The notes under the pieces: generated by a model
Database searches by the model: none
What the model was told of the DNA's origin: nothing
What the model saw: only the letters and a program-made list of their open reading frames with translations
Made by a program: the position numbers and the translations under genes
Shown: positions 17,872 to 61,356 of the stretch, in pieces
Layout of the letters: every line of letters starts with the position of its first letter
Numbering within the stretch: position 1 is the first letter of the stretch
From: an uncultured Bacilli bacterium
Lineage (GTDB): Bacteria > Bacillota_I > Bacilli_A > RF39 > UBA660
Direction of reading: 5' to 3'
DNA: 64,000 nucleotides
Assembly (NCBI GenBank): GCA_947628965.1
Contig: CANRBV010000002.1
Span: 16,247 to 80,246, forward strand

Positions 17872-19470
17872 TCATTTTTTTAAAGTAAGAGTATATGTTT
17901 CTTCTAAATTTTTAGCACTCTTTTCTAATAATTTAATTGCACGATAATATTGATAATATTTTAGAGAAGATTCCGTTTTATCCGATTTGAATTGATTTAA
18001 TTCCATTAGATAAGGGCCATGTCTAAATCGAATAACTTCTTGAAAGTTAATAGGAAGTTGTTCAATTAATTTAAGCCAATCATAATAATTTAAAGAAGGA
18101 TATTTCTTTTGCAATTCCAATAATTTCCCTTTCATACCATATTCTTCTTTATCATTGGATTCATCATCTAAAATATAGTACTTTAACTTTTTCGCATAAG
18201 ATGAATTTCTTAATTTGTGTAAAGAGGCTTCTTCTATTTGACGAATACGTTCTGCTGTAACATGGAATTTTTTTCCCACTTCTTCCAATTTATAACATTT
18301 TCCATCTACTAAACCAAAGCGTAAACCAATCACTTCTTTTTCTCTTGCTGTTAATACAGTTAATAAAGCATTTACATCGTTTTTTAAAAATTTAGCAATT
18401 ACAACATCTTCTGGGGAAGCAATTTTATCATCAACAATATAGTCTTCTAAAGTAGAATTTTGCTCTTCGCCAATGAATGTATTTAAGGAAATTGGTTCTG
18501 TATCTAATCTTAATAATGTATGTATTTCTTTTGGATTCATGTTCATTAATCTAGCTAATTCCTCGATGGATGGTTCATAACCATATTTTAAAGTAAATAA
18601 TTTTTTTTCTTGATTTATTTTGAAGATTTTTCTTTCAATACTATCGGGTAGATGAATTGTTTTTACTTTATTTTTTAGAGCATTAATGATATTTTTTCGA
18701 ATGCACTTATTTGCAAATGTAGAGAATCGAACGCCTCTTTTATAATCAAAGTAATCCACTGCTTTTAATAAGCCTTCGTTTCCTTCCTGTATTAAATCAG
18801 AAATAGGCAAACCTTTTCCTATAAAATCTTTGGCAATACTTATAACCAAACGCAAATTATGTTCTATTAATTTTTTTCTAGCTTCTTGATCTCCCCTATC
18901 TTTTTTCTTAGCAAGTTCTATTTCTTCTTCTTTGCTTAATATGGGAATTTTTTTGGTTTCCCGTAAGTATATTTTAATTGAATTATTAAAATCGATTTCA
19001 CTTAAATATTCTTCTTTTTCATATTCAAAAGATTCTTCAACTTCCTTAGTCTGTCTATCTAAATAGCTATTATACAAATTCTTAAAGTTTAAATCATTTA
19101 AATCTAAAAATAGAGAATCAGGATTTTGTAATAAAGAAGAAAAAAATTGGTCAAAAATAGATAACTCTAATAAATTTATTATGTCTTCATTCGTTAGAGT
19201 ATAGTTCGTATCATTTAAAAATTGTAAAAAATAAGTCATTTTTTCAATAGAAAAATTTTCATTAATTTCGAGTAATTCTAAATAATTTTGCATTATCTCA
19301 AAATTCATATTCTTTTCTAAATAATTCATTATAAATTCATGTAACGCTTCGTCAAAATTTAAACTTTTCTTAGCTTTTTCAAATAATTTACTAAAAACGG
19401 ATTCTGAAATAGTACTATATTTATATTTTTGGTAATATTCTATTTGTTCTTCATCTAACATTATACTCAA
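17872..19470 (-). CDS. sigma-70 family RNA polymerase sigma factor, SigA-like but divergent in region 2.4 and carrying N- and C-terminal extensions
   Basis: Region 2 DLIQEGNEGLLKAVDYFDYKRGVRFSTFANKCIRKNI and region 4.2 LTAREKEVIGLRFGL...LEEVGKKFHVTAERIRQIE. The conserved ATWWIRQAI is replaced by ANKCIRKNI. About 95 aa follow region 4.2. Confidence 0.8.
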   Translation of the reverse strand: MSIMLDEEQIEYYQKYKYSTISESVFSKLFEKAKKSLNFDEALHEFIMNYLEKNMNFEIMQNYLELLEINENFSIEKMTYFLQFLNDTNYTLTNEDIINLLELSIFDQFFSSLLQNPDSLFLDLNDLNFKNLYNSYLDRQTKEVEESFEYEKEEYLSEIDFNNSIKIYLRETKKIPILSKEEEIELAKKKDRGDQEARKKLIEHNLRLVISIAKDFIGKGLPISDLIQEGNEGLLKAVDYFDYKRGVRFSTFANKCIRKNIINALKNKVKTIHLPDSIERKIFKINQEKKLFTLKYGYEPSIEELARLMNMNPKEIHTLLRLDTEPISLNTFIGEEQNSTLEDYIVDDKIASPEDVVIAKFLKNDVNALLTVLTAREKEVIGLRFGLVDGKCYKLEEVGKKFHVTAERIRQIEEASLHKLRNSSYAKKLKYYILDDESNDKEEYGMKGKLLELQKKYPSLNYYDWLKLIEQLPINFQEVIRFRHGPYLMELNQFKSDKTESSLKYYQYYRAIKLLEKSAKNLEETYTLTLKK

Positions 19471-19538: not shown

Positions 19539-20240
19539 TTAAGACAGAAAAAAATCAATTAAAACTGGTGCTAAAATAATAAGCAACATCATTGGAACAA
19601 AAAATAATACGGAAAGAACACTAATTTTTGTAGGAAGCTTGGAAATTTCCGCTTTGGTTTCTAGAATTTTCTTTTCTCTTAAATATTCTAATTGATTATT
19701 AATACTTGTAGCAACATTATTTCCATAAATACTTGATTCTGTTAAATTTAAAAGAATCGTATTAATAGCTTCGCTAGGAATTCTTTCTTTCATTAAAGCT
19801 AAACTTTCTGAAAAACTTTTTCCCATTTTTACATCAGAAAGCGTTTTTTTAAATTCATCGGATAATTCACTATCAATATTCTTCGTTGTAAGTTCTAATG
19901 CTCCTTTTAAGTAGGGATTGGTTTCGAGAGTTAAACTTAAAATTTCAAAGAAAAATAAAGCTTCATTTTCTAATTTCTTACAGCGCTTTTTAATTTTACT
20001 ATCGAATACTATTTGTTCACTAAAAAAGGAAAAAAGTACGACACTTACTGGGGCAAGAATAGCACCATGTTTTGTAAAAAATAGAAAGAATAGAAATAAA
20101 AGTATAGAACCAAAGAAACGAAAATTTAAAAAAGTAAATTCATCCATATTTTTATCTAGTCCTAAATAATTAGCTTTTTTATGAATCCTTTCTATCGTTT
20201 TTCTAGGATAAATATGATATGCAAAATAACTTCTTTTCAT
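19539..20240 (-). CDS. tadC: TadC-like pilus assembly platform protein (T2SSF domain)
   Basis: TM segments flank a cytoplasmic T2SSF-like domain. Last gene of the tad cluster. Confidence 0.55.
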   Translation of the reverse strand: MKRSYFAYHIYPRKTIERIHKKANYLGLDKNMDEFTFLNFRFFGSILLFLFFLFFTKHGAILAPVSVVLFSFFSEQIVFDSKIKKRCKKLENEALFFFEILSLTLETNPYLKGALELTTKNIDSELSDEFKKTLSDVKMGKSFSESLALMKERIPSEAINTILLNLTESSIYGNNVATSINNQLEYLREKKILETKAEISKLPTKISVLSVLFFVPMMLLIILAPVLIDFFLS

Positions 20241-21244
20241 TATATTTTCACCTCTAAAATCTTTTTAATGACCCATATATAAGATATATATAAAAGTAAA
20301 ATTAGTCCAAAAAGGATCCATCCAATTGGTGTTGAAAACAGAGGGTGAAAATAATTTGGATTTAAAAGAAGGATAAAAGAAACAAGAACTAAAGGTAAAA
20401 AAACTAAGATACGATATACAAATAGGCTTGAAGCAGTCAAGCTTTTTAATTCATCTCGCATTTTTTTCTTATTATAAAAAGATTTTTCAATAGTTTCAAA
20501 AACATTGGTAATATTTCCCCCAGTCTTATTTAATAAAGTTAGGGAAGAAGCAATATATTTTGCATCTTCTAGTTTTATTCTTTCATAAAATCGATTAAAA
20601 ACAACTTCTAAACTAAGCCCATAAGTCATATCTAAATAAATTTTTTTAAATTCATCTGAAATCGGTCCACTCAATTCATTTTTTACTGTTACAATGGCTT
20701 GCATAATATTTTTTCCAGATCTAAAGCTATTATTTAAAACCATTATGGCTTTCATTAAATCCTGCTCGATACTTTTCTTTTTTTTAGCAAATTGAATTTT
20801 TAAAAAAATATCAGGTAAGAAAAAACCTAAGATAAAAATAAATACTGTATAAAGAAATAGAATATGTTTTGTTTTAATAAGTGAAGTTACAATACTTAAA
20901 ATTGCACATAAGAAACCTACAAAAAATTTAATGGCTATATAATAAATAGGTTCTTTCTCATTTTTTTCCTGAAAAGAAATATATTTTTCATAGGAAAAAG
21001 CATACTTAGACAAAACCGTTGATTTTTTTAAAACTTTGCTAAATTTTTTTAAAAATATCTCTAGATGAAAAATAATTCTATCAAAGAAAGAAATGATTTG
21101 GTCTTCGTTTGTATGTAAACTAAACGCTTGAAAGCGCTTATTTAACTTAGCGTCTTGTAACCCATTATAAATGCCAAAAATAAGAAGAAAAATACCAATA
21201 AAACTTGCAAACAAAAGCAATAAAATAGGTATAGATATGCGCAT
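20240..21244 (-). CDS. tadB: TadB-like pilus assembly platform protein (T2SSF domain)
   Basis: 334-aa polytopic protein with a T2SSF-like C-terminal part; its ATG overlaps the tadC stop. Confidence 0.55.
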   Translation of the reverse strand: MRISIPILLLLFASFIGIFLLIFGIYNGLQDAKLNKRFQAFSLHTNEDQIISFFDRIIFHLEIFLKKFSKVLKKSTVLSKYAFSYEKYISFQEKNEKEPIYYIAIKFFVGFLCAILSIVTSLIKTKHILFLYTVFIFILGFFLPDIFLKIQFAKKKKSIEQDLMKAIMVLNNSFRSGKNIMQAIVTVKNELSGPISDEFKKIYLDMTYGLSLEVVFNRFYERIKLEDAKYIASSLTLLNKTGGNITNVFETIEKSFYNKKKMRDELKSLTASSLFVYRILVFLPLVLVSFILLLNPNYFHPLFSTPIGWILFGLILLLYISYIWVIKKILEVKI

Positions 21245-21268
21245 AAAATCACTCCTTTCCTTTTATTT

Positions 21269-22615
21269 TTATTCTTCATTTTTTTTAAATATATCTTCTA
21301 AATCGTAAATACCGCGCGAAAGTATTTTTTTATATACTTTTGGAATATAATCATTTAATATAAATTCCCCATCTACTTCACCACTTTCAGTTACCCCTAT
21401 TTGTTTAAAACTAAATATTTCTTTTAATTTAATTCTTTCTTCTTCAAAGCCTACAATTTCTGAAATGGAAGTAATTTTTCTTTTTCCATCGTTCATTCTT
21501 TCAATGTTTACAACAATATCAATGGCACTTGTTATATATTCTCGAATTGCTTTAATAGGAATATCTAAGCCACTCATTAAAACCATTGTTTCTAAACGAT
21601 TTAGGGCATCATGAACACCATTGGCATGCAAAGTAGTTAACGATCCATCGTGACCAGTATTCATTGCTTGTAACATGTCAAATGCTTCTTTACCACGAAC
21701 TTCTCCAACAATTATACGATCAGGTCGCATACGAAGCGAATTTTTAACTAAATCGCGTATAGTAATTTCTCCATCCTTATCATAATTTGTTACTCTTGTT
21801 TCCAAAGAAATAACATTTTTTTGATGTAAACGTAATTCAGCAGCATCCTCTATTGTTATAATTCTTTCTTGTGAGTTAATAAAACCGCTTAAAATATTAA
21901 GTAGAGTTGTTTTCCCACTCCCTGTTCCTCCACAAACAATAATATTCAGTTTCCCTTTTACTGCAGCTTCTAAAAATCTTGCCATATAGGGAGTAAGGGT
22001 ACCTATGCGAATTAAATCTTCAATACTAACCATCGTTTCTTTAAATTTACGAATTGTAATTACAGGTCCTTTCGTAGAAAGTGGTGGAATAACAGCATTT
22101 ATTCTAGAACCATCTAAAAGCCTAGAATCTACCATAGGATTTGCTGCATCGATAGTTCTACCAAGAGGTTCAATTAAACGCTCTATCGTTCTAATTATAT
22201 GTTCATCATTTATAAATGAAACGCTTTCATCTTTAATCAAACGACCATCAATTTCAATATAAATCTCATTTGGACTATTCACCATAATTTCCGTAATATT
22301 TTTATCTTCTAATAATTCTGTAAGAGGTCCATAGCCATTGATTTCATTATCAATTAAATTAAATAAGTGACTTCTTTCTAAGTTAGTTAAATCTTGTCCT
22401 TCAATAGCGGACTCAATTTCTTCATTAATAAATTCATTTAATATTTTTCCTTCAGGAATTTCTTTATCAATTAAATTTTCAACAATCCTTGTTCTTAAAT
22501 CATCTAACAATTTCTTATCAGGAAAGATTTCATAATCGGTAATGCTTTCTATTTTAGGGGTTTTTCTTTCTATATTAAAAGCATCAATTAGGCTTGTTTT
22601 ACTCATGAACATCAC
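21269..22615 (-). CDS. tadA: CpaF/TadA family secretion ATPase
   Basis: Walker [17 protein letters not shown] and the conserved [12 protein letters not shown] motif. Confidence 0.85.
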
Positions 22616-23384
22616 CTACTTTTTCTTTTTTTTCATCCAACAAATCTAAAGCCATATTCATTAGAGTTTCATAATCTTTATTAAAAGTAATGGCCATTTT
22701 ATTTTGTAAAGTAATTATTTCACCATTCATAACATAATCGTCAATGTTTTTTATATAAAAATTACTGGATAGAGTATAATCAATATTAGATTTTATAATA
22801 TTTTTAATATCAAATATAGAAAAATAATCTTTATAGGGATCACGACTATTATTAAGAAGAATTTTATAGTTCGTAATATTCGAATCTTTAAAAATGCTCA
22901 TTAATGATTTCATATTTTTTAAATCGAGTGGATCATTGGATAAAATAAAGAGTATTGTATCTACTTTATCTAGTGTGGTTACATTCATTTCATTTAAAAT
23001 ATGATTCGTATCAATTAAAACAACATCATAGTTGGATTCAGCCTTATCAATTAAAATATCCATATATTTTGAATCTATTTTATTACATTGCCTAGGATCT
23101 TTTGGACAAGGCAATATGTCAATATAATCATCATATTTTGTAACATAATTTTTAAATTCTTCATAGCGATTGTTATTATAATCGTCCACAAAATTAAAAA
23201 TTGTTTTTTCAAAAGGGCGGTTGAGGGCCATACTAATTCCTCCACTAGATAAATCCAAATCAAGTATCAAAATTTTCTTTTCTAAATGTTCAAAAATTCC
23301 CGCTAAATTGGTTGTAATTATTGTTTTTCCAACTCCACCTTTGGATGAAAAAACGCACATTGATTTTCCTTTTGATTTTGACAT
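22599..23384 (-). CDS. tadZ: TadZ/CpaE-like ParA/MinD-family ATPase
   Basis: Deviant Walker A SSKGGVGKT; overlaps tadA by 17 nt. Confidence 0.65.
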   Translation of the reverse strand: MSKSKGKSMCVFSSKGGVGKTIITTNLAGIFEHLEKKILILDLDLSSGGISMALNRPFEKTIFNFVDDYNNNRYEEFKNYVTKYDDYIDILPCPKDPRQCNKIDSKYMDILIDKAESNYDVVLIDTNHILNEMNVTTLDKVDTILFILSNDPLDLKNMKSLMSIFKDSNITNYKILLNNSRDPYKDYFSIFDIKNIIKSNIDYTLSSNFYIKNIDDYVMNGEIITLQNKMAITFNKDYETLMNMALDLLDEKKEKVGDVHE

Positions 23385-23393
23385 AGTATCCCT

Positions 23394-23771
23394 CTATTCT
23401 TTTTCTATTTTTAGTTCATTATTGATATAGAATACACTTTTTATTGCATAAGATTTTATTCCTATTATGTTTCCAAATATACTCTCTTTTTCATATTGTA
23501 CCTTAATTCTTACAAAATCTTTTTTATTCTCGATTTGCAAATTGTATGTAGGTATTTCATTTTCTTCTAATAAAGAAATGATTTTATCATCAAAAGATGC
23601 ATTTTCTTTTTCTTTATACGTTGTTCTTAAAATTGTTCTTAAAGTACTATTTAATCGTGTTTTTTCATTTAAAATAGTCCCAGTATCTACTACAAAAGCT
23701 AGTAATAAAAGAAGAAGTGGCAATAATAGAATAAAGACAATCAATGTTTGTCCATGCCTATTCATTGTCAA
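23394..23771 (-). CDS. TadE/TadF-like pseudopilin
   Basis: N-terminus GQTLIVFILLLPLLLLLLAFVVDTG is a TadE-like hydrophobic segment. Confidence 0.5.
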   Translation of the reverse strand: MTMNRHGQTLIVFILLLPLLLLLLAFVVDTGTILNEKTRLNSTLRTILRTTYKEKENASFDDKIISLLEENEIPTYNLQIENKKDFVRIKVQYEKESIFGNIIGIKSYAIKSVFYINNELKIEKE

Positions 23772-24111
23772 TCACTCTTTTTGCTGTTGCAACATATGGA
23801 TTTTTTAAAATCATATTTAATCCAGGTGTTATTACAGCAATTTCTTTTTTTAAAAATAAAGTTTCGTTTGTTTCATCTTTTGTTATTTCAAGGAATATAT
23901 GATCATGAGTAAGATCTAATTTCTTATCAATTTCCTCTAATGTATTCTCATTTTTGTATTCTGTAATGACATCATCCATTTTACTTTCTAAATTGTTCTT
24001 CACATATAATATTTTTCCAAAATCTAACATACTAAACAACATAAAAATAAAGACGGGTAAAAGAATGACAAACTCAACTAATGCTTGTCCATTACGTTTT
24101 GCTAACAACAT
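23758..24111 (-). CDS. TadE-like pseudopilin
   Basis: Internal ATG at 24109-24111 with GAAGGGG RBS gives MLLAKRNGQALVEFVILLPVFIFMLF, a TadE N-terminal motif. The track ORF extends upstream through the RBS. Confidence 0.5.
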   Translation of the reverse strand: MLLAKRNGQALVEFVILLPVFIFMLFSMLDFGKILYVKNNLESKMDDVITEYKNENTLEEIDKKLDLTHDHIFLEITKDETNETLFLKKEIAVITPGLNMILKNPYVATAKRVIDNE

Positions 24112-24172
24112 ATCACTACCCCTTCTATTATCGTTTTTTATTATAACATAAAAAAAACGCAAAGAAAAGTCT

Positions 24173-24376
24173 TTACGTATTTTTTTCTTGGCAAGTTCCT
24201 TCACCTGGTTTATTACCAGAAACATATTCTTGATCGACTAAAGAGCAGGAAGTTTTTGTTATAGAATCTTTTAAATAACCTCCAAAATAGCTAACTAAAG
24301 AAACGATTATGACACTAATAAGTGCAATAATTAGAACGTATTCAACTAACGTTTGTCCCTTATTATTTTTTAGCAT
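24173..24376 (-). CDS. flp: Flp-family type IVb prepilin
   Basis: ATG at 24374-24376 with AGGTGG RBS gives MLKNNKGQTLVEYVLIIALISVIIVSL... The class III leader G/QTLVEY fits the Flp prepilin motif; 67 aa. Confidence 0.7.
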   Translation of the reverse strand: MLKNNKGQTLVEYVLIIALISVIIVSLVSYFGGYLKDSITKTSCSLVDQEYVSGNKPGEGTCQEKNT

Positions 24377-24398
24377 TTTACCACCTACTCTTACCATA

Positions 24399-24427
24399 AA
24401 TATATAAGAAAAAAGAGGTAAAGTCAA
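24399..24427 (-). promoter_or_regulatory. putative promoter for flp (TTGACT-17-TATATT)
   Basis: Minus-strand hexamers with a 17-nt spacer, 25 nt upstream of the flp RBS. Confidence 0.35.
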
Positions 24428-24437
24428 ATCTTTTATA

Positions 24438-26057
24438 TTATTTTAAAATTCTTTTTCTCACCATTGAATCAGTATCTTCTACAAATAATTTAGAGTATTC
24501 ATCTCTATTTTCAATAATGTTTTCATATTTTTGGGCTTGTAATAATGTAATTAAATAATTCAAAGTATCCCTTTCTGTATTTCTTTCTTCTTTCTTTGCG
24601 CGTAAATATTGAATTGCTTGCTTTAATTTTTCTCTATTTGCACCTTCAATATTTTCAGCAAATTTATATAAATATTCAGCATTTTTGGTTTGAATAATAG
24701 CATCCTCTAATTTTTCTATATTTGCTCTTTTAATATCTTTGGCAAAATAATAAATATATTCAGCATTTTTGGTTTGAATAAGTGCATCTTCCAATTTTTC
24801 TATATTTGCTCTTTTAATATCTTTGGCAAAAGAATAAATATATTCAGCATTTTTGGTTTGAATGATAGCATTCTCTAATTTTTCAATATTTGCTCCTTTG
24901 ATATATCTAGCAAATTTATAAATATATTCAGCATTTTGAGTTTGAATAAGTGCATTTTCTAATTTTTCAATGTTTGCTCTTTTAATATCATTGGCAAAAT
25001 AATAAATATATTCAGCATTTTGAGTTTGAATAAGTGCATCTTCTAATTTTTCAATGTTTGCTCTTTTAATATCATTGGCAAAATAATAAATATATTCAGC
25101 ATTTTGAGTTTGAATAAGTGCATCTTCTAATTTTTTAATATTTGCTCTTTTAATATCTTTGACAAAATAATAAATATAATAAGCATCTTTAATTTGAATA
25201 AGTGCATCTTCTAATTTTTTTCTATTTGCTCTTTTAATATCTTTGGCAAATAAATAAATATAATTAGCCTTTTTGGTTTGAATAAGTGCATTTTCTAATT
25301 TATTTATATTTGCTCCTTTGACATTGCTAGCAAATTTATAAATATATTCAGCATTTTGAGTTTGAATAAGTGCACCTTCAATATTTTCAGTAAATTTATT
25401 CATATATTCAACATTTTGAGTTTGAATGAGCGCATTCTCTAATTTTTCAATATTCGCTCCTTTATTATCTCTAGCAAATTTATAAATATAATAAGCATCA
25501 TGAATTTGAATTATGGCGTCTTCTAATTTTTCTATATTTGCTTCTTTGACATTGCTAGCAAAAGAATAAATATATTCAGCATCATGAATTTGAATTATGG
25601 CGTCTTCTAATTTTTCTATATTTGCTCTTTTAATATCTTTGGCAAATAAATAAATATAATTAGCCTTTTTGGTTTGAATAAGTGCATCTTCCAATTTTTC
25701 AATGTTTGCTTCTTTGACATCGCTAGCAAAAGAATAAATATATTCAGCATTTTTGGTTTGAATAAGTGCATTTTCTAATTTATTTATATTTGCCTCTTTG
25801 ACATCTCTAGCAAAATAATAAATATATTTGGCATTTTCAGTTTGAATTATAGCATCTTCTAATTTTTTTACATTCGCGCCTTCAATATTTTTAGCAAATT
25901 TATAAATATATTCAGCATTCTTAATATCAATAACAGTATTACAACCTAATTCTTTGTCAATAATTCCTAGATTTACTAATTTTATAAAATAACGAAAGTC
26001 CTTTGCCATTATCATTTGTACATTTGAATTCATACTAAAACCTCCTATAATAATCAT
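24438..26057 (-). CDS. tandem-repeat protein: about 16 copies of a 28-aa repeat NAEYIYxFAxDIKxANIEKLEDALIQTx
   Basis: 539-aa ORF with no signal peptide. The repeats are near-identical at DNA level (84-bp period), with a unique N-terminal 45 aa and C-terminal about 60 aa. Confidence 0.7.
   Translation of the reverse strand: MIIIGGFSMNSNVQMIMAKDFRYFIKLVNLGIIDKELGCNTVIDIKNAEYIYKFAKNIEGANVKKLEDAIIQTENAKYIYYFARDVKEANINKLENALIQTKNAEYIYSFASDVKEANIEKLEDALIQTKKANYIYLFAKDIKRANIEKLEDAIIQIHDAEYIYSFASNVKEANIEKLEDAIIQIHDAYYIYKFARDNKGANIEKLENALIQTQNVEYMNKFTENIEGALIQTQNAEYIYKFASNVKGANINKLENALIQTKKANYIYLFAKDIKRANRKKLEDALIQIKDAYYIYYFVKDIKRANIKKLEDALIQTQNAEYIYYFANDIKRANIEKLEDALIQTQNAEYIYYFANDIKRANIEKLENALIQTQNAEYIYKFARYIKGANIEKLENAIIQTKNAEYIYSFAKDIKRANIEKLEDALIQTKNAEYIYYFAKDIKRANIEKLEDAIIQTKNAEYLYKFAENIEGANREKLKQAIQYLRAKKEERNTERDTLNYLITLLQAQKYENIIENRDEYSKLFVEDTDSMVRKRILK
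24590..25920. repeat. 84-bp in-frame tandem DNA repeats (about 16 units, several adjacent units at least 98% identical)
   Basis: For example, 24962-25045 and 25046-25129 differ by 1 nt. The period equals 28 codons. Confidence 0.8.
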
Positions 26058-26156: not shown

Positions 26157-27278
26157 CTAATCCTTATAAACACTATCAATACCAAAATATTCTTCTAGAG
26201 TTAACCAATCTCCATTGTTATAAAGTTTTGTTGCCAATTCTTCCCCAACATAACGAAAATGCCATGCTTCATATTTAAAACCCGTAACGTCTTGTTTTCC
26301 TTTTGGATATCTTAAAATAAAACCATACTTATAGCAATTCTCACTTAACCAATTGGCTTCTGGTGTTCCAATAAATTTATCACTAACTTCGTTTACATCG
26401 AAGGTTAAACCAGATTGATGTTCTGAGTAGCCTGGCCTTGCAGAATAGGTATCCGCCGCTTCTTTACCATCTCTTTTCACATAGTTATCATACAAAGTTA
26501 CTTGTCGATCGTAAGATCTAAATCCACTTGCAATATAAATATTTAAGCCATCTAATAAAGCAGCAGATTGCATTTTTTTAAATGCTGTATTTGTATCATT
26601 AGTAAGACCATTTCCAAAGTTAGAAGGTAGTCCATAACTTTTATTTACAATTAATGTTCCATCAATATAGGTAGCACCATCTCTTACGACACCTTGAAAT
26701 CCTTTAGAAGTCGTAAAATAAGTTTCATTACTAGAAGAACCTAATACTTTTAATGTAAATTCTTCTTTTTTTTCATTTCCACTACTATCTTTAGCAACAT
26801 AATAAAGTCTATATTCTCCTATTTCATTGAAATTATATTCACCTTCTACATAAACTGTTATATTCTCTCTAGAATTATCAGTAGCTAAAACATTTTTTAA
26901 TAAATCTATTTCTTTTCCTTTTTCTGTTGTAAGTGTATTTTGATAGGTAATCACAGGAGATTCTTTATCTACAACTTTGAAAGTAACGTTATAAGTCTTT
27001 TGTAGACCAAAAAAAGTTTTAAAAATTACTACAACTTTCTTTTTACCTACGGTAGAAGTATCTAACATCTCGTCTTTATTTAAAATTTCTCCATTATGTA
27101 CTTGTTTAACAATCTCTTCAATCGTTTTTTCTTCATTTAAAGAAAGAAAAATCTCTTTATTTATAAATAATTTAGAACTATTCCATATTACGAAAACTAC
27201 TATTACAAATAAAAATAAAAATAATAAAATTTTAACTCCCTTTTTTATTCTTCTTTTTTTGTGTTTCATCTTAAACAT
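26157..27278 (-). CDS. VanY-family D-alanyl-D-alanine carboxypeptidase (M15B), membrane-anchored
   Basis: N-terminal TM; catalytic motifs SGFRSYDRQ, SEHQSGLTFDV and EAWHFRYVG. Confidence 0.8.
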   Translation of the reverse strand: MFKMKHKKRRIKKGVKILLFLFLFVIVVFVIWNSSKLFINKEIFLSLNEEKTIEEIVKQVHNGEILNKDEMLDTSTVGKKKVVVIFKTFFGLQKTYNVTFKVVDKESPVITYQNTLTTEKGKEIDLLKNVLATDNSRENITVYVEGEYNFNEIGEYRLYYVAKDSSGNEKKEEFTLKVLGSSSNETYFTTSKGFQGVVRDGATYIDGTLIVNKSYGLPSNFGNGLTNDTNTAFKKMQSAALLDGLNIYIASGFRSYDRQVTLYDNYVKRDGKEAADTYSARPGYSEHQSGLTFDVNEVSDKFIGTPEANWLSENCYKYGFILRYPKGKQDVTGFKYEAWHFRYVGEELATKLYNNGDWLTLEEYFGIDSVYKD

Positions 27279-27368: not shown

Positions 27369-27701
27369 GTGATACTTTTGAAATTACAATTAGAAGAAAA
27401 TACGTTTGAAATTAAAATAGCCACAAACTTTTCGGATCGTTTGATGGGATTTATGGGAAAAACAAATATAAATTATGGTATTTTATTTCCAAAATGCAAT
27501 AGTGTCCATACCTTTTTTATGAAAGAAGAAATTGATATTATCGGTTTAAATGAAAAAAACGAAATTTTATTTATTGAACGCAATTGTTCTAAAAATAAAA
27601 TTATTAAAATTAACTCTCCTATTAAAAAAACAAGTATTTTAGAATTACCTAAAAATACCAGTTTTTCTTTAAATATTGGAAATACCATTCATTTTATTTA
27701 A
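27369..27701 (+). CDS. DUF192-family protein
   Basis: GTG start; motifs RLMGFMG and SVHTFFM resemble DUF192/COG1430. Confidence 0.45.
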   Translation: MILLKLQLEENTFEIKIATNFSDRLMGFMGKTNINYGILFPKCNSVHTFFMKEEIDIIGLNEKNEILFIERNCSKNKIIKINSPIKKTSILELPKNTSFSLNIGNTIHFI

Positions 27702-27982
27702 CCATAAACTCTTTTTAAATAATATTCTTGATTCTCAATAACAAGTAAAAGAAATTCTTTTTCATTTAATCGTAGGAAGGCTTCTTTATTTAAATTTGGC
27801 ATAATTTCAAAATAAAGTGGAACTTGTGACATTAAAATTTCTTCTTTTATATACAAACAATCTCCTACATTAGGTTTATTTTTAAGACCATAAAAATCCA
27901 TATTTAAAGCATGCATTTCATTATCAATATCGCGAAGGGTATAGTTGTAATCTTCTATCTTTTCTATCACACATTTTATCAT
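27698..27982 (-). CDS. hypothetical protein (94 aa)
   Basis: ORF coupled (4-nt overlap) to the upstream LRR gene. Confidence 0.4.
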   Translation of the reverse strand: MIKCVIEKIEDYNYTLRDIDNEMHALNMDFYGLKNKPNVGDCLYIKEEILMSQVPLYFEIMPNLNKEAFLRLNEKEFLLLVIENQEYYLKRVYG

Positions 27983-29163
27983 CTTTTTCTTTCCTCCGAT
28001 TCCACCATTTCTATTTTTCCTAAATATTCAGGATGTTGTTGAATAAGCATTTCATAAACTTGTTCATTATTTGGTATACGAATTTTTAATAGACTATGAT
28101 TATTTGCCATAAAATCATATCCAAATAGTTTCAGATTTTCTAAATTCAAATCTATTACTGAATTATTCCAAAATAAAAAATAATCTCCTATTACTTGAAC
28201 ATTTGGTAAATTTACTTTTGATAATACATTGTTTACAAACAATAAATAATTTCCTATCTTTTGAACATTTGGTAAATTAAGAGAAGTTAATGAATTATTT
28301 CTTCCTAAAAAACTATCTCCTATTTTTTGCACATTTGGCAAATTAAGAGAAGTTAAAGAAGTATTTCCTTCTAAAAAATTATCTCCTATTTTTTGCACAT
28401 TTGGCAAATTAAGAGAAGTTAAAGAAGTATTAAAACGTAAAAAACTATCTCCTATTACTTGAACATTTGGTAAATATAACTCTAGTAATTTAGAATTATC
28501 ATATAAAAAAGCATTTCTTATTTTTTGCACATTTGGCAAATTAAGAGAAGTTAAAGAAGTATTAAAAAGTAAAAAATTATCTCCTATTACTTGAACATTT
28601 GGTAAATATAACTCTAGTAATTTAGAATTATCATATAAAAAAGCATTTCCTATTTTTTGAACATTTGGTAAATTTAGTGTTGATAATATAATGTTGTCAC
28701 ATAAAAAATTATCTCCTATTTCTTCTACATAAGGATTATCAAGACCAATTATCCTATTTTCATTATCTACTTCTAATGTTACTAAGCCTTTCATTGTTTC
28801 AAATTTAATAATTTTGCTGTTTGTTTTCACTTCTACACTAATTTTTTTGATAGGATTGTCTTGAAACATTTTCGTAAAACTATCCTCATTATTTGTACAA
28901 TTAAAAATTGTTTTTTCCTTCATATCAATGATAAAATAATCTGCTAGAATATAATGATCTTTTGGTAATTTGCTTGGCTCATGTTGTTTTAAGACTATAT
29001 TATTTGGACAATAATAGGTATTATCTATTTCATAATTGTATTTATAGTATTTACCATTACTATCTTGTACATAGTGTGGTATTTCAAATTGATTTATAAA
29101 ACTTTGTTCTAAACCATAATGTTCGGCAAAACTTTCTGTTAAGCCTTCTATAATATTATCCAA
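27979..29163 (-). CDS. leucine-rich repeat protein (BspA-like 22-aa LRR units LPNVQKIGDNFLxxNTSLTSLN)
   Basis: At least 8 consecutive 22-aa LRR repeats; TTG start; no signal peptide in this ORF. The upstream frame stays open, as described in the findings. Confidence 0.65.
   Translation of the reverse strand: MDNIIEGLTESFAEHYGLEQSFINQFEIPHYVQDSNGKYYKYNYEIDNTYYCPNNIVLKQHEPSKLPKDHYILADYFIIDMKEKTIFNCTNNEDSFTKMFQDNPIKKISVEVKTNSKIIKFETMKGLVTLEVDNENRIIGLDNPYVEEIGDNFLCDNIILSTLNLPNVQKIGNAFLYDNSKLLELYLPNVQVIGDNFLLFNTSLTSLNLPNVQKIRNAFLYDNSKLLELYLPNVQVIGDSFLRFNTSLTSLNLPNVQKIGDNFLEGNTSLTSLNLPNVQKIGDSFLGRNNSLTSLNLPNVQKIGNYLLFVNNVLSKVNLPNVQVIGDYFLFWNNSVIDLNLENLKLFGYDFMANNHSLLKIRIPNNEQVYEMLIQQHPEYLGKIEMVESEERKR
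28173..28713. repeat. 66-bp in-frame tandem repeats encoding the LRR units
   Basis: Repeated LPNVQ(K/V)IG blocks are visible at DNA level. Confidence 0.7.
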
Positions 29164-48312: not shown

Positions 48313-49890
48313 TTAACTGGCTGATTCAGAACTAGCATTTTTTTCTACAGACAAAACGATACGAAAACCAATCGTATTATCTTGGGAACCATCTTTATTT
48401 GAAAAGCCAAAAATACCAGCATTTGTTGGAGAAGTCATATTAAATCCCCGTATAAAATAGTAGTTAGTATTAAATACGAATTCAGCTTTGTCATTCCAAA
48501 ATGAACTTTGGTTACTTTTAAAAGGACCAACTTCTCCTGTTGCATCTCCCAAAATTCTTGTACTATAGTTATCATTTTTTGTATTATAATTATAAATATC
48601 ATAATATTTATTCTCTTTTGGAAAGTTTTCTTCTGTAAAATTTGACTTTGTACCATATTGCAGTGTCGTACTGTCATTTCCATACATTATTGCCATAACT
48701 TCTTCTCTTGCACCACCACTCATATCATAAATTCCTGTATAATTTCCAGTTGTACTTGCTTTTACACTATTAATGTCATTATAGTTATAAGAGTTGCTAT
48801 TACTTTTACCTGCACTTACTGCACCAGCAGTTTTATTAGCCGTTGCTCCACTAAATCCTGTAATATAATTACTATTATTATTTATATATACTTCTTCACA
48901 AGATATTACGCCATCTTCTGCTTTTGTACACTTACCATAAATGCTTTTTGCTAGATATGCAACAGCTCCCCACTCTGTATTCTTCATTAAATGACTTTGT
49001 AAATCCGATTTATAATTAAATGAAGTTCTAAAAGCATTTCCGATACTTATCTTTCTCCAACTATAAACATTTGGTCTTATTATAATGTTTGCAGCCTCTG
49101 TATCGTTATTATGATTTTGTGCAGTTGTTTTATTTGTTATATTACTATTACTGGTCTCAAACTTCCCTACCCAAAATCCGTTAGTGTTTTCGAAAGCTAA
49201 GAATGCAGGATGGGTCATCCACATACCTTCTTTACAACTTCCTTCATCTCCAGATTTTTCAGGAGTTTTACATTCTTTATAATCTGAATCTGTTTCTTCA
49301 TCATCTTTGGTATTTTCTAGTCCAAACTCAATTTCTATTGCTTGATTTTGTTTTTCCGTATTTAATGTTCCATTATCATTTTCATAATTTCCTAATTGTT
49401 CATCAAATAGTTTATATTTATACTTAGGTATCCAGACAAAATAACTTTCGATATCACTCTCGGGTATTTGGTCTCCATTTTTATAATCATCCGCTGATTT
49501 TCCATCTACTAAGATTACGGCATTTGCCCAATTCTTTTTTTCATAACTATACCAATTATGGGTTATATCAGTTTTATATACATTTCCACTACTAGCTCCT
49601 ATACTAACAGGTATCATTCCATCTCCAAGCACTGGATCTGCTCCATTTAAAAAATCTTCTTTATAAATTTCACTTGGTTTATCGATATCAGGAGATTCTA
49701 AATCTGGATTTCGTAGAAGTTCAAAACCAGGAAGATCGTTTAAATACTCTTGGATATTTTGTTTTTCATGATTTAATAATACTCTATTTTTAGCATAACT
49801 AGCTGAAATCATTAAAAGAGTTACTAAAAAAACTAAAAAGAAGGAATAGATTAAAGAAATCGCTATAAACCCCTTATTGTTATTCTTCAT
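48313..49890 (-). CDS. membrane-anchored protein with pilin-like N-terminus and an FGE-sulfatase (SUMF1/EgtB/PvdO-like) domain
   Basis: N-terminus MKNNNKGFIAISLIYSFFLVF resembles the ComGC-like pilin at 57508 but lacks Glu5. The C-terminal half has NTEWGAVAYLA, GIYDMSGGAREEV and GFRIVL, which resemble FGE-sulfatase motifs. Confidence 0.45.
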   Translation of the reverse strand: MKNNNKGFIAISLIYSFFLVFLVTLLMISASYAKNRVLLNHEKQNIQEYLNDLPGFELLRNPDLESPDIDKPSEIYKEDFLNGADPVLGDGMIPVSIGASSGNVYKTDITHNWYSYEKKNWANAVILVDGKSADDYKNGDQIPESDIESYFVWIPKYKYKLFDEQLGNYENDNGTLNTEKQNQAIEIEFGLENTKDDEETDSDYKECKTPEKSGDEGSCKEGMWMTHPAFLAFENTNGFWVGKFETSNSNITNKTTAQNHNNDTEAANIIIRPNVYSWRKISIGNAFRTSFNYKSDLQSHLMKNTEWGAVAYLAKSIYGKCTKAEDGVISCEEVYINNNSNYITGFSGATANKTAGAVSAGKSNSNSYNYNDINSVKASTTGNYTGIYDMSGGAREEVMAIMYGNDSTTLQYGTKSNFTEENFPKENKYYDIYNYNTKNDNYSTRILGDATGEVGPFKSNQSSFWNDKAEFVFNTNYYFIRGFNMTSPTNAGIFGFSNKDGSQDNTIGFRIVLSVEKNASSESAS

Positions 49891-57097: not shown

Positions 57098-57508
57098 TTA
57101 AGTTCGATCACAAGTTGAATTTATTTTTTCATCATTAAAATGAACATAAAAACGATTATATTTGATATATACAATTAATTCCATATCATCCATTCCTGAA
57201 TTATCACGAGGGTCTAAAATGTAAGGAGCAATATTATTATCCTTTTTCAAATCTCCACTATTAATTAAATCCATAACTGTAATTTTTTTGCTGGAATTAC
57301 CATCATAATTTTCAGTAAAACTTTCTTTACGATCTTCTCCATATAATCTAGCTGCTGTTTCAATTGAATCTATTTTTTTACAATACATATTCGTTTTTAA
57401 TTTATTTGAAATCGAAATGGTACTTGGCACTGCAACGGCAATTAATATTGCTAAAATCACAATAACAGCAAGTAATTCTACCAATGTAAATCCTTTGTTA
57501 TTTTTCAT
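57098..57508 (-). CDS. type IV pilin-like / ComGC-like pseudopilin
   Basis: Start ATG 57506-57508 (GGGTGAG RBS) gives MKNNKGFTLVELLAVIVILAILIAV, a prepilin class III leader with Phe+1 and Glu+5. Confidence 0.7.
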   Translation of the reverse strand: MKNNKGFTLVELLAVIVILAILIAVAVPSTISISNKLKTNMYCKKIDSIETAARLYGEDRKESFTENYDGNSSKKITVMDLINSGDLKKDNNIAPYILDPRDNSGMDDMELIVYIKYNRFYVHFNDEKINSTCDRT

Positions 57509-57582: not shown

Positions 57583-58518
57583 CTATTCCCAAATTTTTAA
57601 TAAAAGTGTTTTCAATTCTAAAAAACGATCTTTTTGTCCGCTTTTAATGTGATAATCAATATTGCTGAGTTCTTTTAAAATGTTTTTTAAATCTTCTTCA
57701 TAATAATAGTTTGCGTTCGTGATTGCTTTATTGATTTGCCAATCTTGCAAACCCAGTTTTTTCCCTATATCTGCTTTTCGATACCCATTTCTTAATAAAA
57801 ACTCTACGCTGTACATAAGACGATATTCCCTTGCTAGTAACATAAGTAAACTAATTGGTTCTACTTTTAAAATATACAAATCCTCTAATATTTTTAATGC
57901 CAATTGACTATCTTTTTTTACTACGGCATCCAAAAACTTAAAATTATTATCCATGAGGGTTTTAGAAATTATTTCATAAACGTCGGCTTTTTCTATTTTT
58001 TTAGGGGTTTCATAATACAAAAAAATTTTTTGTAATTCATTAAATATTAAATCAAAATTATTTTGACAGGTAGTCAAAATATACTCAATTGTTTCTGTCT
58101 CTATTTTGAATTTATTTTGAAAAACCATATCTCTAACTTTATTTATTAAATCAAACTTATTAACAAGATCCGTAGCTTTTACTGGGTATTTTTGAGAAAA
58201 TTCTTTATACACTTTTTTTCGAGCATCAACTTTTGAAGAACATGTAAAAATAATTGTAGTTAAAGGTATAGGATTTTTTATGTACTTTAAAAATAGTTCT
58301 ATATCTTCTTCTTTTGATTTATTGCTTGTAAAAAAATTAGCATTGCGAACAATAATATATTTTTGTTCTTGAAACATCGAAACATAAGTTGCTTCTTCTA
58401 TTACATCTTGTAATGTTGAAACACTTAAATCCATCGTTAAAACATTGTTATTCCCTTTAATAATTTTTTCTATTTCTTCTTCGATTAAACGAAAACTTTC
58501 ACCATAAAACAAATACAT
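57583..58518 (-). CDS. holA: DNA polymerase III delta subunit
   Basis: 311 aa; N-terminus YLFYGE; position after comEC is typical of Firmicutes. Confidence 0.75.
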   Translation of the reverse strand: MYLFYGESFRLIEEEIEKIIKGNNNVLTMDLSVSTLQDVIEEATYVSMFQEQKYIIVRNANFFTSNKSKEEDIELFLKYIKNPIPLTTIIFTCSSKVDARKKVYKEFSQKYPVKATDLVNKFDLINKVRDMVFQNKFKIETETIEYILTTCQNNFDLIFNELQKIFLYYETPKKIEKADVYEIISKTLMDNNFKFLDAVVKKDSQLALKILEDLYILKVEPISLLMLLAREYRLMYSVEFLLRNGYRKADIGKKLGLQDWQINKAITNANYYYEEDLKNILKELSNIDYHIKSGQKDRFLELKTLLLKIWE

Positions 58519-58661: not shown

Positions 58662-60719
58662 TTAGGGATTATGCGTAATGATCTTATAATAGTTTTGCGA
58701 TAATTTAATTTCGATCGTTCCTTTTTGATCAGTTCTTAAAATAGTCGAATTTGCTAACGTATTTAAAACGCTTGCTTTGGGATGTCCATAGCGATTTTTT
58801 TGCCCAACGGATATAATACTGTATTTTGGAAGCATTGTATTTATAAACTCAGTACTTGAAGAAGTATCTGAACCGTGATGTCCAACCTTTAAAAAATCAA
58901 CTTTAAAATGATAATTTTTTAAAAAATCTTTTTCCACATTTTTAGAGGCGTCCCCCATCAATAAAAATGTTTGATTATAAATGTTTATTCTAGTTAGAAT
59001 ACTATTCTCATTTTCATTATCATACTCTCTTAAAAAATAAGTTTTAAAATCAAAGCATTTAGAAGAATATTTGGTTACTTGCCGATAGGTTTCAATTAAC
59101 TCTGCTTCTTTTTCCGTTAACGATCCATGGTTAATCATGACATTTTTAAAAAATATTTCTTTCCCAATTGCACTTGCATAACCAATATGATCCATATCTC
59201 CATGGGTAATCAATAATAAATCTATTTTTCTTATTCGAAGACTTTTCAAAAAAAGAATTATATTGTCACTTAATTTAAATTCTTTATTTTGAACTTGATA
59301 ATCTTTTTTAGGATATGAAGTATTTCCCCCTGTATCAATTAGAATTACTTCTTTATTTTTTGGAGCTACAAATAATGTAGCATCCCCTTGCCCAACATCT
59401 AAAAAATAGACAGAATAACTTCTTTCTAATAAATTTTTATTATATAAAAAAATAAAAAAAAGAATGAAAAAAACAAATAAGCGTTTTAAATGAAATTTAA
59501 AACCTAATACTAAAAAAACATAGAGTAGTAAAACTTCCCATAATTGTATTTTTCCGATTATAATAGGACAAGCAAATGTTTGAAAAAAAGTGTTTAAATA
59601 TCCTAAAATCCCAATACTTATTTGAAATAATGGTAAAAAAATAGGTATAAAAAAGGATAAAAAAGCAAGTGGAAAAACAATAGCGCTAATAAAAGGAACT
59701 AAAAGAATATTAGCCAAGATAGAAAATAAATTTACTTCATAACTTATATATATGGTAATAGGCATACTAAATAAAAAAGTAATTAGACTTATTAAAATAA
59801 TTTTTTTAAATTTATTTTGTTTTTTTAATAAATCGCTGGTATAGATAAGAGAAAACGTAATGGTAAAGGTATACCAAAATCCAATATTATAGATATAAAA
59901 AGGATTATAAAGTAAAAGAAAAAAGGCTGTTAAAAATAAAATTTTTATTGGTGATAAATTAAATTGTCCTCTTTTGTTTATCTTTGTGAAACCCAAAAAT
60001 AAAATAGCTCGTATAAATGAAATAGAAAATCCCGTCACAAATAAGTAAAAAAATAGAAACAAAAAAATAATGATTGTTTTATATTTTAATTTTTTTAATA
60101 TTTTATTTAAAAAAAGATAAATAAAAGATAAATGCATTCCTGATAATGCAAATAAATGACCAACACCATTATTCATAATTTGATCATATTCTTTAGAATC
60201 AATAAAAGTCTTATCTCCAAGGATGAAAGCTCTTAAATAGGCATTATTGCCCAGTTTTTTTAATCGTTCATCTATTTTATTTTTTATTTGGTTTGCAAAA
60301 GAAATTGGAATATTTTGAATTTTTATTTTTGAAGCGGAAAAGCAATAATAAATTCTTTCATGATACAAATATTTTTTATAATCAAAAGTATTAGGAATGG
60401 TTGGATTCTTAATTTCTTGTTTTTCTCCGTACAATGTAATGGTAAGACCAATTTTTAAATTTTTTTCTAAATCTATTTTTTCCTCTTCACTTTTTAAATA
60501 ATAAGTAGCTCTAATTTTTTCTTTATTTTTAACAAGCAACCGAACTTTATCTCCATCAATAGAATAAGATAAAATTTTAGCAGTGATCTTTTGGGTTTCA
60601 TCGGGAATATGTGTTTTATAAGTAATAATTTGGGTAAAAAATAAAACATAGAAAAAAACAAAAGAAAAAAAACAGAAATAAAAGCTATTCGACTGTAATA
60701 GAATCTTTAATTTTTTCAT
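58662..60719 (-). CDS. comEC: DNA internalization competence protein ComEC/Rec2
   Basis: Polytopic competence domain plus C-terminal metallo-beta-lactamase motif (YFLDVGQGDATLF...ITHGDMDHIG). The start is uncertain. ATG 60717-60719 overlaps the comEA 3' end by 35 nt. Confidence 0.8.
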   Translation of the reverse strand: MKKLKILLQSNSFYFCFFSFVFFYVLFFTQIITYKTHIPDETQKITAKILSYSIDGDKVRLLVKNKEKIRATYYLKSEEEKIDLEKNLKIGLTITLYGEKQEIKNPTIPNTFDYKKYLYHERIYYCFSASKIKIQNIPISFANQIKNKIDERLKKLGNNAYLRAFILGDKTFIDSKEYDQIMNNGVGHLFALSGMHLSFIYLFLNKILKKLKYKTIIIFLFLFFYLFVTGFSISFIRAILFLGFTKINKRGQFNLSPIKILFLTAFFLLLYNPFYIYNIGFWYTFTITFSLIYTSDLLKKQNKFKKIILISLITFLFSMPITIYISYEVNLFSILANILLVPFISAIVFPLAFLSFFIPIFLPLFQISIGILGYLNTFFQTFACPIIIGKIQLWEVLLLYVFLVLGFKFHLKRLFVFFILFFIFLYNKNLLERSYSVYFLDVGQGDATLFVAPKNKEVILIDTGGNTSYPKKDYQVQNKEFKLSDNIILFLKSLRIRKIDLLLITHGDMDHIGYASAIGKEIFFKNVMINHGSLTEKEAELIETYRQVTKYSSKCFDFKTYFLREYDNENENSILTRINIYNQTFLLMGDASKNVEKDFLKNYHFKVDFLKVGHHGSDTSSSTEFINTMLPKYSIISVGQKNRYGHPKASVLNTLANSTILRTDQKGTIEIKLSQNYYKIITHNP

Positions 60720-61356
60720 AGATAGCTTCTCCAATTCCTGACACATTTTTAATTTCAGATATGTCTTTAAATGGTGTTTTAGTTCGATACTCAATTATAT
60801 TGAGTGCTTTTGCTTCTCCAATTCCCGACAATGTCATTAATTCTTCCTTTGTAGCGGTATTTAAAGAAATTTTTTTATTCGTTACTATAGAAGATGGATT
60901 GCTATTTAAGGATGTAGTTTTATTTGCAGAAGTACTGGTTTTATTAGATACGGTTGTCTTTGTAGAGGAAGCAATTGTACTATTTAACTTTTTTACTTCA
61001 CTTTTAGATAAAATAACAATCATATCTTCATCATTAAGTTTTTTACTTAAGTTAATATTATCTGTTGTGCCCTCGCTTTTAAGACCACCTGCTAATTTTA
61101 TTAAATCGTTAATAATTGTGCCCTCTTCTACTTCATAAACTCCTGGATTCTTTACATAGCCTTTAAGATCTACTTTTATTTTAGGGGATTCTGTATTATC
61201 TTCCGTAGTAGATGCTTCTAAACAAGGTTCACAAGGTATTATTGGTTCTTTTTCATTAAAAAGAAAATACAAAGTAAAAAGATTGGTTATAAAAAGAAAA
61301 ACAATTACAACAAAATAGACTAATTTTCCTTGTAGACACTTTTCTAAAAAAAACAT
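60685..61356 (-). CDS. comEA: competence protein ComEA (DNA receptor; SLBB plus tandem HhH)
   Basis: N-terminal TM, then VDLKGYVKNPGVYEV and LSGIGEAKALNIIEYR...VSGIGEAIYEKIK. Confidence 0.8.
   Translation of the reverse strand: MFFLEKCLQGKLVYFVVIVFLFITNLFTLYFLFNEKEPIIPCEPCLEASTTEDNTESPKIKVDLKGYVKNPGVYEVEEGTIINDLIKLAGGLKSEGTTDNINLSKKLNDEDMIVILSKSEVKKLNSTIASSTKTTVSNKTSTSANKTTSLNSNPSSIVTNKKISLNTATKEELMTLSGIGEAKALNIIEYRTKTPFKDISEIKNVSGIGEAIYEKIKDSITVE

Follow-up and report, generated by a model that had tools for sequence, protein, structure and literature searches.

As described for Bifidobacterium breve, the minimal gene set for a Tad (tight adherence) pilus in monoderm bacteria encodes one pilin together with two minor pilins, TadZ and the ATPase, and a pair of paralogous platform proteins; the peptidase gene is found at another locus (PMC6916266). 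Within Bifidobacterium the genes are ordered tadZ-A-B-C and then flp-tadE-tadF, and the prepilin peptidase gene tadV always resides outside of the Tad locus, being absent from a group that carries a type IVa system (PMC13091076). In Bulleidia, a DUF192 gene is 'consistently adjacent to Tad-related genes' (PMC12786226), and in Micrococcus luteus Flp/Tad pili are required for natural transformation (PMC6916266). Herein we consider a Tad (type IVc, Flp) locus within a 64,000 nt stretch of DNA from an uncultured Bacilli bacterium (contig CANRBV010000002.1), the whole of which is referred to as the window. An earlier note had read this as a Gram-positive-type Tad/Flp locus with its own promoter and a peptidase encoded elsewhere, and our analysis supports that core interpretation. 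The locus is an ordinary, intact and well-conserved member of the well-known Tad system and, judged from its sequence, is probably a chromosomal, vertically inherited, minimal monoderm Tad pilus operon. No description of this locus in RF39-type Bacilli was found in the literature searched.

The locus consists of seven consecutive open reading frames (ORFs), all on the minus strand, running from position 24376 to 19539 of the window:

24376..24173, minus strand: flp, 67 aa, MLKNNKG/QTLVEY (slash, cleavage site), Pfam Flp_Fap
24111..23758, minus strand: tadE1, 117 aa, Pfam TadE
23765..23394, minus strand: tadE2, 123 aa, Pfam Tad/TadE
23384..22599, minus strand: tadZ-like (ParA/MinD), 261 aa, Pfam AAA_31/CbiA/ParA
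22606..21269, minus strand: cpaF/tadA, 445 aa, Pfam T2SSE
21244..20240, minus strand: tadB, 334 aa, Pfam T2SSF
20240..19539, minus strand: tadC, 233 aa, Pfam T2SSF

All seven products exceed curated Pfam cut-offs, including those for Flp_Fap, TadE, T2SSF and T2SSE (CpaF), and the identities and order proposed previously (flp, TadE/F, TadZ, CpaF, TadB, TadC) are those found here, TadZ as a putative assignment. Start codons were refined to ATG with an accompanying Shine-Dalgarno sequence, which precedes each of the seven genes, and public gene calls on identical contigs agree with this refinement. The junctions, from flp to tadC, are +61, -8, +9, -8, +24 and -1 nt, such that tadE2 overlaps tadE1 by 8 nt, the tadZ-like gene overlaps cpaF by the same amount and the tadB stop and tadC start codons share 1 nt. 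The overlaps of 14-17 nt given in the earlier note do not stand, as they arose from taking the longest ORFs, with TTG or GTG starts. Its description of the locus as complete is unproven, because the prepilin peptidase has not been located.

In gene content, the locus is like that of B. breve UCC2003: both have flp, tadE, tadF, tadZ (here a tadZ-like gene), tadA, tadB and tadC with tadV elsewhere (PMC6916266, PMC13091076), both are without a secretin, RcpB, RcpC and TadD, and both belong to gut commensals. The gene order, which had also been said to match Bifidobacterium, does not, as the pilin genes come first here and the two blocks are reversed there (PMC13091076). Further differences lie in the mature pilin, which here has 60 aa and bears a Cys-Cys hairpin at its C-terminus, versus 44 aa in B. 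breve UCC2003, in the TadZ-like protein, which is short and limited to the ATPase domain, and in the host phylum, low-GC Bacillota as opposed to Actinomycetota. Bulleidia extructa PP_925 (Erysipelotrichales; PMC12786226) shares the Tad locus, a small-genome, wall-bearing Bacillota host, Com-type pilins and a tad-associated DUF192 gene; its operon, however, has 13 genes, starts with tadV and contains two pilin genes and TadG. There, DUF192 is penultimate and co-directional, whereas here it is divergent and upstream, and tadV is absent from the locus.

The diderm prototypes, Caulobacter crescentus Cpa and Aggregatibacter Tad, have in common with this locus CpaF/TadA, the TadB/TadC pair, a Flp with the G/XXXXEY motif, and TadE/TadF. 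By comparison, the locus described here harbours no secretin (CpaC/RcpA), CpaB/RcpC, TadD, TadG or CpaA/TadV, and its TadZ is without the N-terminal domain. M. luteus similarly makes a monoderm type IVc pilus from a small Flp pilin (68 residues versus 60 here), but from duplicated loci in which TadG replaces TadZ, and with DNA uptake as the demonstrated function (PMC6916266). Finally, the TANB77 pilus cluster (PMC11680825) is likewise Tad-related and conserved across an uncultured low-GC gut clade; identity with it was rejected on architecture, since its TadA has 640 aa, its TadC and TadB are fused into one protein of 693 aa, and it further comprises CpaB, two ParA-like genes and, downstream, genes that resemble those of pilins.

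The major pilin is short, and its match to Flp_Fap passes the threshold (33.7 bits against a cut-off of 32.2; E-value 3e-8). The class III leader proposed previously can be read directly from the sequence, with MLKNNKG preceding a 60-aa mature part that starts QTLVEY. Across 26 Flp homologues the processing motif G/Q-x-L-x-E-Y is invariant (G7, Q8, E12 and Y13), as are C44 and C62 (C-x17-C). In an AlphaFold2 model (pLDDT 83), Flp forms a helix from 6 to 46 followed by a beta-hairpin (49-52 and 61-64), and the two cysteines bracket this predicted C-terminal hairpin; a fold search with the model against PDB returned no informative match. Flp homologues fall into 1578 clusters, the top 120 of which are at least 70 % identical, and cluster members are named 'Flp family type IVb pilin [Bacilli bacterium]' at NCBI. 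The next two genes encode pseudopilins. The product of tadE1 starts MLLAKRNG/QALVEF and is a TadE-like minor pilin (Pfam TadE, 2e-10), and that of tadE2 is TadF/TadG-like, starts MNRHG/QTLIVF without a Glu at +5, and matches both Pfam Tad (PF13400; 2e-6) and TadE (3e-5) over the cut-off.

CpaF/TadA, the assembly ATPase, displays a Pfam T2SSE match of 1e-62 and, in PDB, matches Caulobacter CpaF (8RKD/8RJF/9E24; E-value ~2e-101), with archaeal GspE/FlaI as the next family (4e-45). It retains intact Walker A (GGTGSGKTT), Asp box, Walker B and His box motifs. TadB and TadC are inner-membrane platform paralogues with 24 % identity (E-value ~5e-6), each with a single T2SSF domain (1e-11 and 2e-13, respectively). 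The tadZ-like gene, directly upstream of cpaF, encodes a member of the ParA/MinD superfamily with a Walker A of KGGVGKT (Pfam AAA_31, 1.5e-13; also CbiA and ParA), and its position is kept in all relatives.

For an evaluation of conservation, 62 related loci (L001 to L062) were collected by a genome scan with CpaF. These derive from uncultured gut metagenome-assembled genomes, labelled in their records as Bacilli, Tenericutes, Mollicutes, Erysipelotrichaceae, 'Clostridium sp. CAG:710' and Candidatus Coprosoma, and CpaF identity ranges from 63 to 88 % in L001 to L061, with L062 at 56 %. They include closed genomes of 1.2-1.3 Mb, and the host DNA has a GC content of ~26 %; the clade of host and relatives is one that we take to resemble the RF39-type reduced-genome Bacilli. 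Full-length locus hits occur across the collection. Truncated contigs excepted, tadZ, cpaF, tadB and tadC are syntenic throughout, as is tadE2 in most loci; tadE1 is kept in 57 of 62, and in about half of the loci flp is the first gene. Identical copies of the locus are present in four independent assemblies. No internal stops occur in the seven genes when compared with the two closest species (L001 and L003), and TadA, TadB and TadC, whose pseudogenization in relatives had been named as grounds for refuting the earlier reading, have intact homologues. Values of dN/dS against L001 and L003 are 0.07-0.24 for the seven genes (0.12-0.23 for tadE1), all approximate, as dS is saturated (>1). All seven genes are intact and under purifying selection.

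Several observations weigh against the reading as a minimal monoderm Tad pilus operon, the saturation of dS being one. Another is L002 (1-6300; CpaF 81 % identical), in which obg is directly followed by intact tadZ-cpaF-tadB-tadC-ruvA, and DUF192, flp, tadE1 and tadE2 are all missing at this site; the pilin module and DUF192 have therefore been lost or relocated together. The TadZ-like protein is an ATPase domain alone, without the N-terminal receiver-like domain. Its best PDB matches are MinD and FleN, with no solved TadZ at an E-value ≤1e-3, and its best NCBIfam match is of ParA type, with no specific TadZ match, so that the assignment is made from position and superfamily membership only. 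Lastly, no peptidase is found near the locus. Neither a motif scan, a hidden Markov model (HMM) built from four TadV seeds, Pfam searches of all multi-transmembrane ORFs, nor a search with A24 peptidases closer to this clade (the type found beside DUF192 in loci L139 and L143) identified a Peptidase_A24 in the window, in line with what the earlier note had reported. Nor was one detected when the search was carried 10 kb past the window's right end, or in the 62 relatives up to 10 kb from the locus. Database homologues of the L139/L143-type A24 proteins number only 22, and belong to a different lineage. For this reason, processing of Flp is assumed.

Indirect support for such processing comes from other class III proteins with the same leader, from the invariant motif, and from relatives in which a Com-type ATPase accompanies GFTLVE pilins. 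Within the window, a ComGC-like orphan pilin (57508..57098, minus strand) begins MKNNKG/FTLVE, a leader nearly identical to that of Flp, and a 525-aa pilin-like protein (49890..48313, minus strand; MKNNNKG/FIAIS) shares the Flp leader. Near to the former lie holA (57583-58518), comEC (58662-60794) and comEA (60685-61356), all on the minus strand.

Expression of the locus is seemingly arranged around three elements on either side of flp:

24427..24399, minus strand: P1, sigma-70-type promoter TTGACT-17-TATATT, 10/12 match, positionally conserved
24178..24150, minus strand: terminator/attenuator-like hairpin (9-bp stem, 24178..24157) and T run, overlapping the flp stop codon
24148..24140, minus strand: P2, extended -10 promoter TGTTATAAT, ending 28 nt before the tadE1 ATG

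P1, which was already recognised in the earlier note, ends 22 nt before the flp ATG, with an AGGTGG Shine-Dalgarno sequence in between. Considered alone, P1 is at chance level, as 72 promoter-like sites occur in 11 kb and the same number in shuffled sequence. Amongst the 24 related loci that bear flp, TTGAC[AT]-N16-18-TAnnnT is found no more than 120 nt upstream of this gene in 18, against a background of 0.11 per kb, and in L001 and L003 P1 is almost identical despite different upstream genes. We read the promoter before flp as real. A comparable hairpin and T run follows flp in many relatives, including L018, L020, L022, L024, L029, L033, L040, L041 and L058, and the flp-tadE1 spacer contains TGnTA[TAC]AAT in 15 of the 24 loci, always ending 24-32 nt before tadE1 (background 0.49 per kb). 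These elements point to a likely order of P1, flp, attenuator and P2, with the six assembly genes behind them, an arrangement that is the usual route to an excess of pilin. A riboswitch or leader RNA controlling flp was rejected, because an Rfam scan of the whole window gave no match at the gathering threshold and the -10 element lies just 22 nt from the ATG. Likewise, no tRNA genes were found in the window, even though it encodes several aminoacyl-tRNA synthetases and ribosome-associated proteins.

A further element, upstream of the seven genes, is the following:

27369..27701, plus strand: DUF192 gene, 110 aa, no signal peptide, Pfam DUF192 (7e-9)

DUF192 lies immediately next to flp, and divergent from it, in 20 related genome loci, and loci that lack flp lack DUF192 as well; the two are separated in the window by insertion of the VanY-family and repeat-protein genes considered below. 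This conserved partnership, with a gene lying beyond the seven, weakens the earlier description of the locus as a self-contained module. The DUF192 linkage, together with the hairpin after flp and P2, is new relative to that description. Part of the adjacency is plain synteny, since DUF192 in this clade often resides beside obg without any tad genes. Metagenomes scanned with a DUF192 alignment nevertheless contain the flp-DUF192 divergent pair in 16 of 76 loci, in three genomic contexts, and without other tad genes nearby (e.g. L175, L177). On unrelated, higher-GC contigs the order is T2SSF, DUF192 and FHA protein, with DUF192 directly after tadC (Pfam-confirmed in L147, L157 and L158), and tad genes occur on four of the six such contigs that extend at least 3 kb on both sides. 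In L139 and L143, moreover, the gene immediately before DUF192 encodes a Peptidase_A24, a pairing that survives IS605/HNH insertion in homologous contigs which also carry T2SSE/T2SSF or PilN/PilO genes. In two of these, L165 (10001-12798) and L168 (10001-12811), an IS605 OrfB/Cas12f-like or HNH endonuclease gene sits exactly between A24 and DUF192. Sites at which DUF192 is linked to Tad genes are as follows:

L020, 7721-8065: DUF192/Tad linkage site
L175, 9743-10324: DUF192/Tad linkage site (flp-DUF192 pair)
L177, 9715-10321: DUF192/Tad linkage site (flp-DUF192 pair)
L147, 841-1179: DUF192/Tad linkage site (DUF192 after tadC)
L143, 3996-5320: DUF192/Tad linkage site (DUF192 after Peptidase_A24)

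DUF192 thus occurs in four independent arrangements: next to flp, after tadC, after Peptidase_A24 and inside the Bulleidia tad operon (PMC12786226). These recurrent linkages argue for a functional link between DUF192 and Tad, and we regard DUF192 as a probable accessory partner of flp. The subfamily has an invariant signature, C-N-S-I-H-T-F-F-M...I-D...E, the invariant residues being G27, M29, F40, C43, N44, H47, T48, F49, F50, M51, I55, D56 and E92. A broader proposal, which is tentative, is that DUF192 might be an unrecognised accessory of monoderm, and some diderm, Tad systems that acts on Flp or its maturation, for example as a peptidase partner or regulator, or as a cytoplasmic pilin-handling factor. 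It would further hold that flp and DUF192 form a conserved divergent pair, and that in a large clade of gut Bacilli with reduced genomes the Tad pilus may be the principal surface appendage, with an extremely conserved pilin and a hairpin pinned by its two cysteines. A role for DUF192 in pilin maturation is put forward as a hypothesis only.

What is established about Tad systems suggests how the operon might work. P1 and the hairpin would generate an excess of pilin transcript, with read-through and P2 supplying the machinery. After membrane insertion, the Flp prepilin would be cleaved behind Gly7 by a prepilin peptidase of the A24 family whose gene lies elsewhere; this may be the same enzyme that processes the ComGC-like pilins of the genome, given their nearly identical leader (MKNNKG/F). 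The two TadE-like minor pilins would then prime assembly, and a CpaF hexamer on the TadB/TadC platform, positioned by the ParA-like TadZ, would assemble Flp subunits into a thin filament, which would pass through the wall with no need of a secretin. The filament most likely serves for attachment in the gut, be it to host mucus, to the epithelium or to other cells and particles, and this is the least secure step in the scheme.

The main functional rival holds that the filament is chiefly a DNA-uptake (competence) pilus rather than an adhesin. Tad pili do mediate transformation in M. luteus (PMC6916266), and the window harbours ComEA, ComEC, HolA and an orphan ComGC-like pilin, with no comGA or comGB in its 64 kb. 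Relatives such as L030, however, possess a separate PilB/ComGA-like ATPase with GFTLVE pilins, so a dedicated Com-type machine is probably encoded elsewhere in this genome too, and the tad locus is unlinked to the com genes; a competence pilus is an unlikely reading. That the operon is an orphan or in decay, and has ceased to produce pili for want of the peptidase or other partners, would fit with the lack of a peptidase in any sequence examined around the locus, with the loss of pilin genes at this site in L002, and with those Bifidobacterium species that are without tadV (PMC13091076). It does not sit well with seven intact genes at the dN/dS values given above, with invariant Flp processing and catalytic motifs, with conserved promoters, or with a pilin whose identity stays at 70 % or above over more than 100 clusters, and decay is considered very improbable.

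A third alternative is that the locus belongs to a mobile element or was gained by horizontal transfer as a 'colonisation island'. Tad loci have classically been called a widespread colonisation island, that of Bulleidia was judged to be horizontally acquired (PMC12786226), and the best NCBIfam match of CpaF here is a conjugal-transfer-associated TadA family, albeit below the cut-off (319 vs 373 bits). Against this, the GC content and skew of the locus are the same as those of its flanks, with uniform composition, and no integrase, tRNA or repeat boundaries are found around it. Moreover, the obg-DUF192-tad-ruvAB neighbourhood recurs in several species, at CpaF identities down to ~76 %. With flank-like composition and conserved obg...ruvAB synteny, a genomic island was rejected, and acquisition of this kind is considered very improbable. 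The reading preferred is that of a vertically inherited Tad pilus operon.

With regard to its wider meaning, the locus leaves the current understanding of the Tad mechanism unchanged; it is a clean and compact example, with what appears to be a two-promoter and attenuator layout. Tad pili are proven gut-colonisation factors in Bifidobacterium, and the presence of the same minimal machine, together with a pilin of such identity in more than 100 clusters, suggests how a widespread clade of uncultured, small-genome gut Bacilli may attach. Flp would, in addition, offer a conserved antigen at the cell surface for tracking or targeting, and the DUF192 linkage is a lead, open to testing, towards an accessory function that Tad systems still lack. 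The significance is modest, and derives mainly from the breadth and conservation of the pilin within an uncultured gut clade and from this linkage.

The genes on either side of the operon, other than DUF192, are less well conserved:

27979-29163, minus strand: second repeat protein, leucine-rich-repeat-like, 22-aa (66-nt) units
27278..26157, minus strand: VanY-family gene, best NCBIfam match LD-carboxypeptidase LdcB, below cut-off
26057..24438, minus strand: repeat protein, 539 aa, about fifteen 28-aa repeats (84-nt unit, 24624-25923)
19461/19470..17872, minus strand: RpoD-like sigma gene, 529/532 aa, downstream of tadC, followed by ruvA and ruvB

The pair formed by the VanY-family gene and the first repeat protein is located upstream of flp, as previously noted, with the repeat unit now corrected to 28 aa (84 nt) in ~15 copies; the stop codon of the repeat-protein gene lies 10 nt before the -35 element of flp. 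Both repeat proteins are lineage-specific and without a signal peptide, and neither was found at this site in the 62 relatives, except for a 40-aa, 58 %-identical match to the first in L003. VanY was rejected as a conserved wall-remodelling part of the locus, because a full VanY/LdcB-like gene occurs upstream of flp only in the window and L001. Weak 'VanY' matches between cpaF and tadB in relatives correspond to an Ig-like extension of TadB with no peptidase domain (e.g. the 506-aa TadB of L020). Such N-terminal extensions, of ~170 aa, are frequent in the TadB of relatives, and resemble the Ig-like domain found in the VanY-family protein of the window. Relatives also encode, inside or adjoining the tad operon, large type IV pilin-like proteins of 340-1074 aa with GFTLVE N-termini. 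Coordinates for these proteins and for extended TadB are:

L058, 4856-8080: large pilin-like protein or extended TadB
L051, 2840-4095: large pilin-like protein or extended TadB
L018, 13534-14892: large pilin-like protein or extended TadB
L035, 6712-8451: large pilin-like protein or extended TadB
L020, 11332-12852: large pilin-like protein or extended TadB

The sigma gene, which the earlier note described as divergent, is in fact on the same strand as the tad genes and downstream of tadC, from which it is separated by a weak hairpin and a promoter-like site (TTGCAA-16-TATAAT). A role for this adjacent factor as regulator of the operon finds no support. It follows tadC at three loci only, namely the window, L001 (13124-14836) and L003 (13119-16079), it has its own promoter-like site, and it is fast-evolving, with 39-40 % identity and a dN/dS of 0.47-0.64 versus ~0.1 for ruvA. 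In region 2.3/2.4, conserved residues have been lost from the window copy, which displays FSTFANKCIRKNIINAL in place of the canonical STYATYWIRQAITRAI of L001. The L003 copy, at 986 aa, is extended by approximately five C-terminal repeats of ~65 aa.

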